Assembly: GCF_041886205.1 (NCBI RefSeq)
Contig: NZ_CP169029.1
Length of the DNA: 64,000 bases
Strand: one strand, 5' to 3'
Source: Escherichia coli
Lineage (GTDB): Bacteria > Pseudomonadota > Gammaproteobacteria > Enterobacterales > Enterobacteriaceae
The notes beneath the pieces are model-generated. The model had not been told where the DNA came from, did no database searches, and was given only the letters and a program-made list of their open reading frames with translations. Below, piece after piece: positions 2,433-35,825 of this stretch (its first letter is position 1; each line of letters begins with the position of its first letter). The translations under genes were made by a program, and so were the position numbers.

Positions 2433-3559
<1,127 letters not shown>

Positions 3560-9726: not shown

Positions 9727-10674
9727 ATGCGTGTGTTACTGGCGCCGATGGAGGGTGTGCTTGACTCTCTGGTGCGTGAATTGCTGACCGAAGTTAACGA
9801 CTACGATCTGTGCATCACCGAGTTTGTCCGCGTGGTGGATCAACTGCTGCCGGTAAAAGTCTTTCATCGCATTTGCCCTGAGCTACAAAACGCCAGCCGG
9901 ACACCATCCGGTACGCGGGTGCGCGTTCAGTTGTTAGGTCAGTTCCCACAATGGCTGGCAGAGAACGCCGCCCGTGCGGTGGAATTAGGTTCCTGGGGCG
10001 TGGATCTCAATTGCGGCTGCCCGTCGAAAACGGTTAACGGCAGCGGCGGCGGGGCGACGTTACTCAAAGATCCTGAACTCATCTACCAGGGTGCAAAAGC
10101 GATGCGTGAAGCTGTACCGGCGCATTTGCCCGTCAGCGTGAAAGTGCGTCTGGGCTGGGACAGCGGTGAGAAGAAATTTGAAATCGCCGATGCGGTTCAA
10201 CAGGCTGGTGCTACGGAGCTGGTGGTGCATGGACGGACAAAAGAGCAGGGTTACCGCGCGGAGCATATTGACTGGCAGGCGATTGGCGAGATTCGCCAGC
10301 GGCTGAATATTCCGGTGATTGCCAACGGTGAAATCTGGGACTGGCAGAGTGCGCAACAATGCATGGCGATCAGCGGCTGCGACGCAGTGATGATTGGTCG
10401 CGGGGCGCTCAATATTCCCAACCTGAGCCGGGTGGTAAAATATAACGAACCGCGAATGCCGTGGCCGGAGGTGGTTGCTTTGCTGCAAAAATATACCCGT
10501 CTGGAAAAGCAGGGCGATACCGGGTTATATCACGTAGCGCGGATTAAACAGTGGTTGAGTTATTTGCGTAAAGAATACGATGAAGCAACAGAATTATTTC
10601 AGCATGTTCGGGTGTTGAATAATCCCCCTGATATTGCAAGGGCTATTCAGGCAATTGATATCGAGAAACTCTAA
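9727..10674 (+). CDS. dusC: tRNA-dihydrouridine(16) synthase DusC, 315 aa
   Basis: 315-aa ORF beginning [22 protein letters not shown]-barrel Dus family; synteny. Confidence 0.92.
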
Positions 10675-10715
10675 TAAACCATAGTGATGTTTTTTGACAA
10701 TGTGTTAGCTCTTTA

Positions 10716-10976
10716 TCAATAGGCCGCACGGTTGTTTGGTGGCGTCAAAATTGCCGAGGCGTTCCCTGAAGGCCGGGGCAGCCCACATGGATGTGGGCTG
10801 AGGGCGCGTTTTACAGGGATGTTACCTCGCGCCCGACCCGGTAGCCGTAAGGGATAAGCCGAGGGCACCGCGCAGCGGCGATTTTGTTCGCCAGAGCCCG
10901 GGGGTGCAGGGGGCGGCGGCGATTGGCCGCCCCCTGCGCGCTCCTTGCGCCAGTGATTATATGAAGCAATGCACAT
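10716..10976. repeat. GC-rich intergenic repetitive element with two perfect palindromes
   Basis: cagcccacat/atgtgggctg (10779-10800) and cagggggcggc/gccgccccctg (10907-10936) read directly; not canonical REP. Confidence 0.4.
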
Positions 10977-11045: not shown

Positions 11046-11129
11046 TTTAAAATATCATCTTAAATACGCCAGTCACCACCAGTAGCCCAATCAGGAAAAT
11101 AATCAATACAGCCCAGAGTATAATTTTCA
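11046..11129 (-). CDS. yohP: small membrane protein YohP, 27 aa
   Basis: Reverse-strand ORF MKIILWAVLIIFLIGLLVVTGVFKMIF, below track size cut-off; matches remembered YohP. Confidence 0.7.
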
Positions 11130-11353
11130 TTGGCGTTCCTTTATTTGTGAGTGCTGAATAAGTATAGGAAAAAACGAAGCCCTTTGCCGTTATCCATAAA
11201 CGATTAAGATAAATCGGAAGATATCATTCACTTAGTGTATATTTTTCTGGATATGTCGTTTTATTGCTACTGATGTATTGCCACGCGAAACTAAAAAATA
11301 TATCGCAACACACGGTAATCTCCGCGCACCTTTTCTTACCTGATTATTCCCCC

Positions 11354-12790
11354 ATGAATCGTGATTCCTTTTATCCCGCCATCGCCTGTTTTCCGCTGTT
11401 ACTGATGCTGGCCGGGTGTGCGCCTATGCATGAAACCCGCCAGGCGTTAAGCCAGCAAACGCCCGCTGCACAAGTTGACACCGCATTACCCACGGCGCTG
11501 AAAAATGGTTGGCCAGACAGCCAATGGTGGCTGGAGTATCACGATAATCAGCTCACTTCATTAATTAACAATGCACTACAGAACGCACCGGATATGCAGG
11601 TGGCTGAACAGCGCATTCAGCTAGCTGAAGCCCAGGCGAAGGCAGTTGCCACTCAGGATGGTCCGCAGATCGACTTTTCGGCGGATATGGAGCGGCAAAA
11701 AATGTCGGCAGAAGGCTTAATGGGGCCGTTTGCTCTGAACGATCCGGCCGCAGGTACGACCGGCCCGTGGTACACCAACGGTACTTTTGGCTTAACGGCG
11801 GGCTGGCATCTCGATATCTGGGGAAAGAATCGGGCGGAGGTTACTGCCCGCCTGGGTACGGTTAAAGCACGGGCGGCGGAACGCGAGCAAACCCGCCAAT
11901 TGCTGGCTGGCAGCGTAGCCCGCCTGTACTGGGAGTGGCAAACCCAGGCGGCGTTAAACACGGTCTTGCAGCAAATAGAAAAAGAGCAGAACACCATTAT
12001 CGCGACCGATCGCCAGCTATATCAGAACGGGATTACTTCTTCAGTTGAAGGTGTGGAAACCGATATTAATGCCAGCAAAACCCGGCAGCAGCTCAACGAT
12101 GTCGCGGGGAAAATGAAAATTATTGAGGCACGGTTAAGCGCACTTACAAATCACCAGACAAAGTCATTGAAGCTTAAACCGGTCGCGTTGCCGAAAGTGG
12201 CAAGCCAGCTTCCTGATGAACTGGGGTACTCCTTACTGGCCCGGCGGGCAGATTTGCAGGCGGCGCACTGGTACGTTGAGTCATCGCTAAGCACCATTGA
12301 TGCGGCAAAAGCGGCATTTTATCCTGACATCAACCTGATGGCCTTCCTGCAACAGGATGCGTTGCACTTAAGCGATCTGTTCCGTCATTCCGCGCAGCAA
12401 ATGGGCGTTACGGCAGGCCTGACGCTACCCATTTTCGATAGTGGTCGTCTTAACGCCAATCTCGATATCGCAAAAGCCGAAAGCAACTTGTCTATCGCCA
12501 GCTACAACAAAGCGGTGGTTGAAGCGGTGAATGACGTGGCGCGGGCAGCCAGTCAGGTTCAGACACTTGCGGAGAAAAACCAGCATCAGGCGCAAATTGA
12601 GCGCGATGCCTTGCGTGTGGTAGGTCTTGCGCAGGCGCGCTTTAACGCGGGCATCATTGCTGGTTCCCGCGTCAGCGAAGCCAGAATCCCCGCGCTGCGT
12701 GAGCGGGCCAATGGCCTGTTATTGCAAGGGCAGTGGCTGGATGCCTCCATTCAACTCACTGGTGTGTTGGGCGGGGGTTACAAACGCTGA
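11354..12790 (+). CDS. mdtQ: outer-membrane efflux lipoprotein MdtQ (TolC/OprM family), apparently intact, 478 aa
   Basis: Track ORF 11264..12790 trimmed to MNRDSFYPAIACFPLLLMLAGCA lipobox start; continuous reading frame. Confidence 0.8.
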   Translation: MNRDSFYPAIACFPLLLMLAGCAPMHETRQALSQQTPAAQVDTALPTALKNGWPDSQWWLEYHDNQLTSLINNALQNAPDMQVAEQRIQLAEAQAKAVATQDGPQIDFSADMERQKMSAEGLMGPFALNDPAAGTTGPWYTNGTFGLTAGWHLDIWGKNRAEVTARLGTVKARAAEREQTRQLLAGSVARLYWEWQTQAALNTVLQQIEKEQNTIIATDRQLYQNGITSSVEGVETDINASKTRQQLNDVAGKMKIIEARLSALTNHQTKSLKLKPVALPKVASQLPDELGYSLLARRADLQAAHWYVESSLSTIDAAKAAFYPDINLMAFLQQDALHLSDLFRHSAQQMGVTAGLTLPIFDSGRLNANLDIAKAESNLSIASYNKAVVEAVNDVARAASQVQTLAEKNQHQAQIERDALRVVGLAQARFNAGIIAGSRVSEARIPALRERANGLLLQGQWLDASIQLTGVLGGGYKR

Positions 12791-15069: not shown

Positions 15070-15242
15070 AAAGTTCTTTGACGTTGCATTGCTGGCGTAA
15101 ATGTCAGCAATGCAGCATTTCCTCACGATTCTCCTTTGACGATCGCACTTTTTGCTCGTTATGATGGCGTCGCTAGCCTCAGTAAATCCTTACTCCGGCG
15201 GTGCGCAACCCGTGCGCGTGAACCACTATCTGAATGCTCATC

Positions 15243-16175
15243 ATGCCGAAATTTCGAGTTTCTTTATTTAGCCTGGCCCTGATGCTGGCTGTGCCTTTGG
15301 CACCGCAGGCCGTTGCGAAAACGGCAGCCGCTACCACCGCCTCACAACCGGAAATTGCCTCCGGTAGCGCGATGATTGTTGATCTGAATACCAACAAAGT
15401 GATCTATTCGAACCACCCGGATCTGGTGCGTCCGATTGCGTCTATCAGCAAATTAATGACCGCGATGGTCGTGCTGGATGCACGACTGCCGCTGGATGAA
15501 AAACTAAAAGTGGATATCAGCCAGACGCCGGAGATGAAAGGGGTCTATTCGCGCGTACGACTGAATAGCGAAATCAGCCGTAAAGATATGCTGTTGCTGG
15601 CGCTGATGTCTTCAGAAAACCGCGCGGCGGCAAGCCTTGCGCACCATTATCCCGGTGGTTACAAAGCCTTTATTAAGGCGATGAATGCGAAAGCGAAGTC
15701 GCTCGGAATGAACAACACGCGCTTTGTTGAACCGACCGGATTGTCGGTGCATAACGTTTCAACCGCCCGTGACTTAACCAAACTGCTCATTGCCAGCAAA
15801 CAATATCCGTTGATCGGGCAGTTAAGTACCACCCGGGAAGATATGGCAACCTTCTCTAACCCGACGTATACGCTGCCGTTCCGCAATACTAATCATCTGG
15901 TGTATCGCGATAACTGGAATATCCAGCTAACCAAAACCGGCTTTACCAATGCGGCGGGCCATTGTCTGGTGATGCGTACGGTTATCAATAATAAACCGGT
16001 GGCGCTGGTAGTGATGGATGCGTTTGGCAAATATACCCATTTTGCCGATGCCAGCCGCCTGCGTACCTGGATTGAAACCGGTAAAGTGATGCCTGTTCCG
16101 GCAGCAGCGTTGAGCTATAAAAAACAAAAAGCCGCCCAGATGGCGGCGGCGGGGCAGACGGCACAGAACGATTAA
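15243..16175 (+). CDS. pbpG: D-alanyl-D-alanine endopeptidase PBP7, 310 aa
   Basis: Signal peptide plus SISKLM (SxxK) active-site motif; start set at [11 protein letters not shown]. Confidence 0.9.
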
Positions 16176-23637: not shown

Positions 23638-24369
23638 ATGAAGATGTTGCGCGATCCGCTGTTCTGGCTCATTGCTCTGTTTGTGGCACTGATTTTCTGG
23701 CTGCCTTACAGCCAGCCGCTGTTTGCTGCCTTGTTCCCACAACTGCCACGACCCGTTTATCAGCAAGAAAGTTTTGCAGCTCTGGCACTGGCTCATTTCT
23801 GGCTGGTGGGAATTTCGAGTTTGTTTGCGGTGATCATTGGTACTGGTGCCGGAATTGCAGTCACTCGCCCGTGGGGCGCGGAATTTCGCCCACTGGTGGA
23901 AACTATTGCCGCCGTTGGGCAGACTTTTCCGCCTGTCGCAGTGCTGGCGATTGCTGTTCCGGTGATCGGCTTTGGTCTGCAACCAGCGATTATCGCCTTG
24001 ATCCTGTACGGCGTGCTGCCCGTCCTGCAGGCGACACTTGCCGGGCTGGGAGCGATTGATGCCAGCGTGACAGAAGTTGCGAAGGGTATGGGAATGAGTC
24101 GTGGTCAGCGACTGCGTAAGGTCGAGCTACCGCTGGCGGCTCCGGTGATTCTGGCGGGCGTGCGAACTTCGGTGATTATCAACATTGGTACGGCGACGAT
24201 CGCCTCAACGGTAGGGGCCAGCACGCTGGGTACGCCCATCATCATCGGGCTTAGCGGATTTAATACCGCGTATGTGATCCAGGGGGCGTTACTGGTGGCA
24301 ATGGCGGCGATCATTGCAGACCGCCTGTTTGAAAGGCTGGTGCAGGCGCTTAGCCAGCACGCAAAATAA
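23638..24369 (+). CDS. yehW: ABC transporter permease YehW, 243 aa
   Basis: Polytopic permease, last gene of transporter block. Confidence 0.9.
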
Positions 24370-24457
24370 AGGTATAACCTGCGAGCATGACGCCACCAAT
24401 TCCGCCTAACGCCATAAACAGGAACAGGGCGATGACCCCAATTTTAGCTATGCGCAT
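24350..24457 (-). CDS. yohO: small membrane protein YohO, 35 aa
   Basis: Reverse-strand [38 protein letters not shown], below track cut-off; 3' end overlaps convergent yehW. Confidence 0.65.
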
Positions 24458-24516
24458 AATGCACTCCTTATGTTAACGAAAGGATTGTACAGTAAAGCGC
24501 ATTTGTTAACGAATCA

Positions 24517-25248
24517 TTAAATGCCGAGTGGGAAAATATCATAGCCTTGTTCTTGCCAACTGGTGAGTTGCTGTTGTTGGGCGGAGGTTCGATTTTCACC
24601 GCACCACACCAGCAATGTACGGCCTTCAAACAGTTCAGGGCGTAGTTGATTGAGTGAGTGGGCGAGGACATCAATGCGCCAGCCTTGTTGACTGGCAATC
24701 CAGCCCTCCAGCCACAGACGGGTGGTATCGTGAATATTCCAGCCAACCACCAGCGCATCTTTACCCTGTTTTTTACGTGCCGAAGCCAGACAGATGGCGA
24801 TGTAGTTGATCAGTACGCCGTCGAGGATCGCCAGCAGCGCCTGGAGAGTCGGTTGTTGGCACTGAAGCCGTCGGCGCAGAGGAATAAACAGATGTGTGGT
24901 GAGTGTCTGGGCGGGGTAATCCTGACCACGCTCTTTGATCCACGTTCGCAGGCTATGCAGATTGCCGCTTTGCAGGTAAGTCAGTAATGTTTCTTGCTGA
25001 TCGCGCCAGCCATTCTGCACATCAACATTTTCATTACTGAGCAGCATTTTTACTTTGCTGACCTGCACGCCGTTGTCGATCCAGCGTTTAATCTCGCGGA
25101 TCCGGTCAATATCGGCATCGTTGAACAGCCGATGACCGCCGTCTGTCCGTTGCGGTTTCAGCAATCCGTAACGCCTCTGCCACGCGCGTAACGTGACAGG
25201 GTTAATATCACAAAGCAACGCCACTTCACCAATTGTGTAAAGCGCCAT
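24517..25248 (-). CDS. mlrA: MerR-family regulator MlrA (activator of csgD), 243 aa
   Basis: MerR HTH at N-terminus (MALYTIGEVALLCDINPVTLRAWQRRYGLLKPQRTDGGHRLF); synteny. Confidence 0.9.
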   Translation of the reverse strand: MALYTIGEVALLCDINPVTLRAWQRRYGLLKPQRTDGGHRLFNDADIDRIREIKRWIDNGVQVSKVKMLLSNENVDVQNGWRDQQETLLTYLQSGNLHSLRTWIKERGQDYPAQTLTTHLFIPLRRRLQCQQPTLQALLAILDGVLINYIAICLASARKKQGKDALVVGWNIHDTTRLWLEGWIASQQGWRIDVLAHSLNQLRPELFEGRTLLVWCGENRTSAQQQQLTSWQEQGYDIFPLGI

Positions 25249-35626: not shown

Positions 35627-35656
35627 AAATAAAAAAACCTGCTGGTGAGGCAGGTT
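35627..35656 (-). terminator. intrinsic terminator downstream of yehK, upstream of yehL
   Basis: Reverse strand reads aacctgc-ctcacca-gcaggtt followed by tttttttatt. Confidence 0.55.
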
Positions 35657-35825
35657 CTTTTATTTACTATTTTCAGGCCTAACACCACAGCCTGTGCAAC
35701 ATCGTGTTCCAACGAACGAATTATAACCACGGCTGGACCCCGTTGCAATTAAGATAATGAGATTTATAATCCAGACCGTTGGGACGTTGCGCCGGATCGG
35801 ACCAATTTGAATTATTTAGAGTATA

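Follow-up and report, generated by a model that had tools for sequence, protein, structure and literature searches.

The annotated small membrane-protein gene yohO of Escherichia coli, its conserved overlap with yehW and a putative ArcA-repressed promoter

Two short membrane-protein genes and their surroundings

The window analysed here, a 64-kb stretch of Escherichia coli DNA, contains two very short genes for hydrophobic proteins, yohO and yohP (Table 1). The first of these lies between mlrA and yehW, and its 3' end overlaps that of yehW on the opposite strand. The YohO sequence matches the NCBIfam equivalog model NF010225 ('protein YohO') with 80.1 bits, residues 1-35 falling on positions 1-35 of a model that is 35 positions long and has a curated cut-off of 57 bits, and it is identical to the UniRef entry YOHO_ECOLI, which is found on at least 1000 contigs. 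RefSeq annotates yehX, yehW, yohO, mlrA and btsS in the same arrangement, overlap included, on the 100%-identical chromosome of E. coli strain wlxctx60. Set against the YohO/UPF0387 family (NF010225, E. coli b4542), the gene shows a full-length match and the same mlrA-yohO-yehW synteny and overlap, and we see no difference. The first-pass annotation, made from the sequence alone, had taken this 35-codon frame for YohO, an identification that is borne out by the NF010225 match, the UniRef name and the RefSeq annotation; yohO is thus an already annotated E. coli small membrane-protein gene and not a new one.

Table 1. Features of the window discussed in the text, with positions counted from its first nucleotide.
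Feature	Position	Strand	Description	Basis
dusC	9727..10674	+	borders the spacer with yohP	
Intergenic element	~10715-10965		~250 bp, GC-rich, unannotated; between dusC and yohP	
yohP CDS	11047..11130	-	27 aa plus stop, MKIILWAVLIIFLIGLLVVTGVFKMIF	ORF list, Pfam, NCBIfam, RefSeq
Putative yohP Shine-Dalgarno	11137-11141	-	AAGGA	sequence only
Putative yohP -10-like element	11161-11166	-	TATACT	sequence only
mdtQ	11354-12790	+	intact, 478 aa	
Peptidase-S11 RNA motif	15158-15238	+	immediately 5' of the ORF at 15234-16175, with a slight overlap	
yehW	23638..24369	+	convergent with yohO; 'glycine betaine ABC transporter permease YehW'	ORF list, RefSeq
yohO/yehW CDS overlap	24350..24369	both	tail to tail, 20 nt	
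yohO CDS	24350..24457	-	35 aa plus stop, ATG start	ORF list, NCBIfam, RefSeq
yohO Shine-Dalgarno	24464..24469	-	AAGGAG, 6 nt 5' of the ATG	sequence and conservation
Putative yohO -10 hexamer	24484..24489	-	TACAAT, 26 nt before the ATG	cross-species alignment
ArcA box	24503..24520	+	TTGTTAACGAATCATTAA; overlaps the mlrA stop codon; only exact match in the window	
mlrA	24517..25248	-	MerR-family regulator; 59 nt 5' of yohO, same strand	ORF list, RefSeq
OrzO-P antitoxin sRNA (Rfam RF02083)	35631-35706	-	full-length match, 99.9 bits; yehK-yehL intergenic	
TPP riboswitch	59212-59308	+	upstream of the ORF at 59343	

Within the species the locus is nearly constant, a 1.7-kb segment carrying yohO between mlrA and yehW being found in 5423 of 5426 complete E. 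coli genomes. The family as a whole is narrow: among 1.84 billion cluster representatives only 17 were YohO-like at E<=1e-3, and several of these are chimeras produced by frameshifts or by assembly. With each species represented by a single genome, a scan recovered a relative in 159 species, and the best 80 of these 159 (loci L002-L081) served as the comparative set. It includes Escherichia, Salmonella, Citrobacter, Klebsiella, Raoultella, Enterobacter and Kosakonia, as well as Phytobacter, Trabulsiella, Pluralibacter, Leclercia, Shimwellia, Superficieibacter, Erwinia and others.

The window holds 178 ATG-initiated ORFs of 25-40 aa, and a short ORF alone is therefore not beyond chance. YohP and YohO nevertheless rank first and second in hydrophobicity among these 178 (GRAVY 2.47 and 1.58, respectively), and they are the only two that combine a GRAVY above 1.5 with a Shine-Dalgarno-like sequence. 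All yohO homologues in the best 80 of 159 species start with ATG and are 34-37 aa in length, and nearly all non-Erwinia loci of this set carry (A)AGGAG 6-7 nt 5' of the start codon. Over all codons of the 78 distinct nucleotide sequences that these 80 species provide, the in-frame pN/pS is 0.22; one antisense frame gives 0.42 and the remaining four give 1.2-3.0. In the same 78 sequences the variable sites include 30 of 33 third codon positions and 11 of 33 second positions. The loci had been located through a peptide pattern spanning nine core codons; pN/pS without those codons is 0.28, and the purifying signal persists. We conclude that yohO is under in-frame purifying selection and is a genuine gene. 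The first-pass annotation had proposed ORF conservation and ribosome occupancy as checks on this point, and both speak for the gene: to the conservation across the best 80 of 159 species can be added the Ribo-seq coverage of YohO shown in a preprint. YohO is also called 'membrane-bound' in a passage of a preprint that cites Hemm 2008, and was detected by top-down mass spectrometry in a 2025 proteomics paper.

The predicted layout of YohO is simple, with a short basic N-terminus (MRIAK), one transmembrane helix and a short C-terminal tail. Residues G19, I20, G22, V23, M24, L25, G27 and Y28 do not vary across the family sample, the core reading (G/S)GI(G/S)GVML(A/V)GY, and one face of the helix presents a small-xxx-small pattern, G18xxxG22xxxA26. 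The PDB contains no entry for either YohO or YohP.

The second gene, yohP, lies between dusC and the annotated start of mdtQ. YohP gives full-length matches to Pfam PF25659 (50.6 bits; cut-off 27) and to NCBIfam NF011345 (67.3 bits; cut-off 58), and the RefSeq annotation of strain 120899, which is identical, has the gene in the same place. The first-pass annotation was right about the protein, its 27 residues and its place in the dusC-mdtQ spacer, but its coordinates, 11046-11129, were one base low. In comparison with the known YohP (PF25659, NF011345), length and dusC-yohP-mdtQ position are the same and no difference is seen. Published work describes post-translational, SRP-dependent insertion of YohP and targeting of its mRNA to SecY/YidC, induction in stationary phase and on starvation, a lowering of the membrane potential, triggering of the stringent response and promotion of nucleoid condensation. 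The gene is therefore a known, already annotated gene for a stress-induced membrane protein.

Several other features of the window were recorded alongside. The GC-rich element between dusC and yohP is repeated within E. coli, with a median of 3 copies per genome (17,781 places across 5,425 genomes), and contains the perfect hairpins GCAGGGGGCGGC/GCCGCCCCCTGC and CAGCCCACAT/ATGTGGGCTG; a search of Rfam gave no match for it. The gene mdtQ, a pseudogene in K-12, is intact here and likewise in strain 120899. The OrzO-P match may be an orphan antitoxin or the remains of a decayed zor-orz locus, no ZorO/ZorP-like toxin ORF of ~29 aa being present among the ORFs of at least 20 aa nearby. The Peptidase-S11 motif and the TPP riboswitch look like ordinary, known cis-regulatory elements.

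The overlap with yehW and the neighbourhood of yohO

The gene yehW belongs to the osmF-yehYXW operon, which encodes the glycine betaine ABC transporter YehZYXW. Sequence and RefSeq agree with the earlier statement that yohO overlaps the final 20 nt of yehW on the opposite strand, and the yehW stop codon faces yohO codons Phe30-Ile31. One study that applied genomic SELEX to minor sigma factors reported a type-D (intragenic) peak at K-12 coordinate 2214150, inside yehW, between yohO and yehX.

The arrangement is well kept in other genera. A convergent yehW homologue adjoins yohO in 76 of the best 80 of 159 species, and in 75 of these best 80 the two coding sequences overlap, by 17-26 nt. The size of the overlap tracks the length of YohO: it is 20 nt with proteins of 35 aa and 17 nt in one case with a protein of 34 aa, and it reaches 26 nt with proteins of 37 aa (ending ...RGGVG) because the yohO stop codon lies two codons further on. 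Across the overlapping loci the yehW stop codon keeps its place facing the conserved Phe-Ile codons of yohO.

The gene on the other side is less constant. In the best 80 of 159 species mlrA is absent 5' of yohO at 13 loci, four of them in Erwinia and nine elsewhere, and the nine non-Erwinia loci retain yohO, its upstream signals and the overlap with yehW. At eight of these nine, btsS directly adjoins yohO (L035, L039, L043, L053, L058, L060, L062 and L063); at the ninth, from Shimwellia (L069), an ORF of 742 aa sits 5' of yohO instead. The linkage of yohO to yehW is thus tighter than that to mlrA, and mlrA is dispensable for the arrangement.

The Erwinia loci (L029, L042, L046 and L081) stand apart, with no mlrA, yehW, yehX or btsS in the fetched flanks. 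Their YohO homologues have 34 aa and end in ...IVRS, and the genes are preceded by neither an AGGAG Shine-Dalgarno sequence nor an ArcA-like box. In one of them (L029) yohO occupies positions 2989-3105, with a lipoprotein-like ORF on one side and an MFS transporter gene on the other, and an in-frame upstream ATG would lengthen the N-terminus of the protein by MDEV.

The putative yohO promoter and its ArcA box

Alignment of the yohO upstream regions from the best 80 of 159 species points to a promoter just ahead of the gene. The candidate -10 hexamer lies mostly 26 nt before the ATG, and 14 nt upstream of it the same alignment has a near-palindrome, TTAATGnTTCATTAACA, which stands at a fixed position with at least 12 of 16 matches in 72 of the 80 loci; 11 of its 17 positions are conserved at 96% or more. 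At these 72 box-carrying loci the hexamer reads TATAAT in 48 and TACAAT in seven, namely E. coli and six others. The box is kept where mlrA is missing and btsS adjoins yohO and also where extra DNA separates mlrA from yohO (e.g., L030). By consensus and conservation, yohO has a predicted conserved promoter of its own, from which the transcription start is placed; with a start ~7 nt downstream of the -10 hexamer, the box would span about -26 to -43.

Departures from this layout were also recorded. In Citrobacter and related loci (L012-L014, L016-L020 and L023-L026) the ArcA-like box stands at -55 or -56 from the ATG, as against -63, and the -10 hexamer differs from TATAAT. Salmonella enterica arizonae (L008) combines a degenerate box (TTAAACAGCAGCTAACA) with a retained TATACT -10. 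These variants mean that the architecture of the yohO promoter is not uniform.

The reverse complement of the near-palindrome is similar to the direct-repeat box of ArcA. Park et al. (2013) list 'yohO' as an ArcA ChIP-chip/ChIP-seq region with the box ttgttaacgaatcattaa, scored at 14.2 bits (their Tables S1, S3 and S4), and this 18-mer is identical to the one box that we find in the window. It is among the 128 boxes behind their ArcA logo, and it is a weak one: of its 14.2 bits the second repeat contributes 1.6, and the ChIP peak values are low, at 2.5 and 1.9. The same authors count yohO as one of 31 operons that have an ArcA site upstream and are expressed at a low level. In RNA-seq data from Shigella flexneri, yohO falls ~8-fold without O2 (log2FC -2.96; one dataset, in which the anaerobic yohO counts are low), and the effect of fnr on it is not significant. 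In common with the ArcA-repressed promoters of Park et al. (2013), yohO thus has a direct-repeat box over its predicted promoter, a ChIP peak in vivo and a lower mRNA level without O2, and it differs from them in that its site is weak and its operon lowly expressed under their conditions. Most likely, phosphorylated ArcA represses yohO at low oxygen by occluding the promoter, a mechanism that we infer from the position of the box, though we acknowledge that the drop in Shigella was seen in a single dataset from a related species and does not directly implicate ArcA.

Readings of the palindrome as a Fur, FNR, CRP or MerR-type site were dropped on spacing or position. The -10 region of E. coli (TGTACAAT) half-resembles an MlrA box, and this resemblance is not conserved in other genera.

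Could yohO instead lack its own promoter and simply be the downstream member of an operon with mlrA? Both genes lie on the same strand with a short gap between them, and our terminator scan found no terminator-like site in that gap, which makes it likely that read-through from mlrA contributes to yohO. Transcription from mlrA alone is nonetheless highly improbable as the whole account, given that the -10 hexamer and the ArcA box keep their fixed spacing even in the nine species that lack mlrA and at loci with inserts between mlrA and yohO, and that the ArcA ChIP peak is centred on the mlrA-yohO spacer.

Convergent transcription, possible membrane partners and a probably autonomous yohO

A terminator scan and single-sequence folds revealed no convincing intrinsic terminator near the overlap on either strand, and alignment folds revealed no conserved hairpin 3' of yohO inside yehW (consensus -7.6 kcal/mol, covariation term ~0) or 3' of yehW through yohO (-0.4 kcal/mol). 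With a coding overlap of 20 nt and no terminator nearby, the yohO and yehW transcripts must overlap when both are made, probably by more than 20 nt. The suggestion of the first-pass annotation that this geometry could couple the two genes by transcriptional interference is not new, for yohO-yehW is one of the 165 convergent pairs that ExcludonFinder (NAR 2025) has catalogued as overlapping in transcription in 50% or more of 58 RNA-seq sets from MG1655. The pair shares its convergent orientation and overlapping transcription with the convergent excludons of that MG1655 catalogue. The defining consequence of such excludons is mutually exclusive expression, and here the Shigella data show no reciprocity for yohO and yehW: no yeh change is listed beside the anaerobic fall in yohO, and in an fnr mutant yehZYXW rises by log2 1.8-3.0 (4-8-fold) with no yohO change listed, again in one dataset of limited power. 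These data argue, if weakly, against strong coupling of the two genes.

A functional excludon, in which colliding polymerases or duplex RNA cleaved by RNase III would let yohO and osmF-yehYXW lower each other, accordingly seems to us unlikely. It could draw on the coding overlap, on the want of a terminator between or near the two genes in our scan, on the catalogue entry and on the retention of the overlap in 75 of the best 80 of 159 species. Each partner, however, shifts 4-8-fold in Shigella without a listed change in the other; conservation of an overlap can follow from simple synteny and dual coding constraint; and the coverage criterion flags any pair with overlapping coding sequences almost by construction, so that the excludon call is close to automatic here. 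The predicted promoter and the ArcA site would, moreover, explain the regulation of yohO without yehW. We regard as quite unlikely, too, the broader proposal that the overlap and ArcA control together form an oxygen-responsive switch on YehZYXW, acting either through aerobic yohO transcription that runs antisense into yehW or through YohO as an aerobic accessory helix of YehW/YehY.

The same neighbourhood raises the question of a protein partner. KdpF, AcrZ, MgtS, CydX and PmrR are small proteins that modulate larger complexes in the membrane, and YohO shares with them its size, a single transmembrane helix, a conserved face of small residues and condition-specific expression; KdpF and CydX are co-transcribed with their neighbour, whereas the gene for YohO is convergent to its own. 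By synteny YehW/YehY is the obvious candidate partner, and YohO might then be an accessory or regulatory subunit of YehZYXW, as KdpF is to KdpABC, AcrZ to AcrB and MgtS to MgtA. Its place beside yehW in 76 of the best 80 of 159 species, including the nine without mlrA, would fit such a role, and the invariant glycine-rich face of the helix suits packing against another helix. Against a strict partnership stand the four Erwinia loci, where yohO occurs with neither yehW nor yehX in the fetched flanks, and the differing responses in Shigella, where yohO follows oxygen and the yeh genes follow fnr. We therefore hold this role to be very unlikely. More generally, the most likely mode of action that we infer from the sequence pattern is that YohO packs its glycine-rich helix against itself or against a larger membrane protein.

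Type I toxin-antitoxin systems with a 3' overlap are known in Bacillus, and a small hydrophobic peptide whose transcript meets a convergent one invites the comparison, with the 3' end of yehW as antisense partner. Such systems are characterised by a dedicated antisense sRNA together with toxicity, and an Rfam search returned no RNA, antitoxin or other, at the yohO locus. The yohO leader is short and exposes a strong Shine-Dalgarno sequence, the protein was seen by mass spectrometry in a proteomics study that gave no sign of toxicity, and an IPTG-induced ASKA clone of yohO grew in a screen based on growth, where it was among those picked. The chance that yohO is a toxin-like gene of this kind is, in our judgement, negligible.

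Taken as a whole, the locus is probably best explained by yohO being an autonomous, ArcA-repressed unit that encodes a helix-packing protein and whose overlap with yehW is incidental. On this explanation yohO would form a separate transcription unit with a strong, conserved ribosome-binding site and a sigma-70-type -10 element ~26 nt before the ATG. At low oxygen, ArcA-P bound to the box over the -35 region would block this promoter, and yohO would be expressed mainly under aerobic conditions. The overlap would be a compact, evolutionarily locked arrangement with a minor regulatory effect at most, and YohO would act as a single-pass inner-membrane protein with its helix packed on itself or on a larger membrane protein. 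For this explanation the gene identity, the overlap, the coding selection and the conservation of promoter and box come from the present analysis, and the literature supplies the evidence for translation, for a membrane location, for ArcA binding by ChIP and for the fall in mRNA without oxygen. Against an incidental overlap it can be said that so tight and conserved a link to yehW (75 of the best 80 of 159 species) could reflect a functional tie.

Much of this was already known: both genes carry annotations and have been on record for years as coding for small membrane proteins, YohP has been studied in detail, the overlap is present in RefSeq, and the overlapping transcription has been catalogued. 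What is added here is that the overlap is locked in 75 of the best 80 of 159 species, that mlrA is dispensable, and that yohO has a conserved predicted promoter with an ArcA box that fits its anaerobic drop. In combination, these facts sketch a small membrane protein that is expressed under aerobic conditions and linked to the yeh locus, a picture that can be tested.
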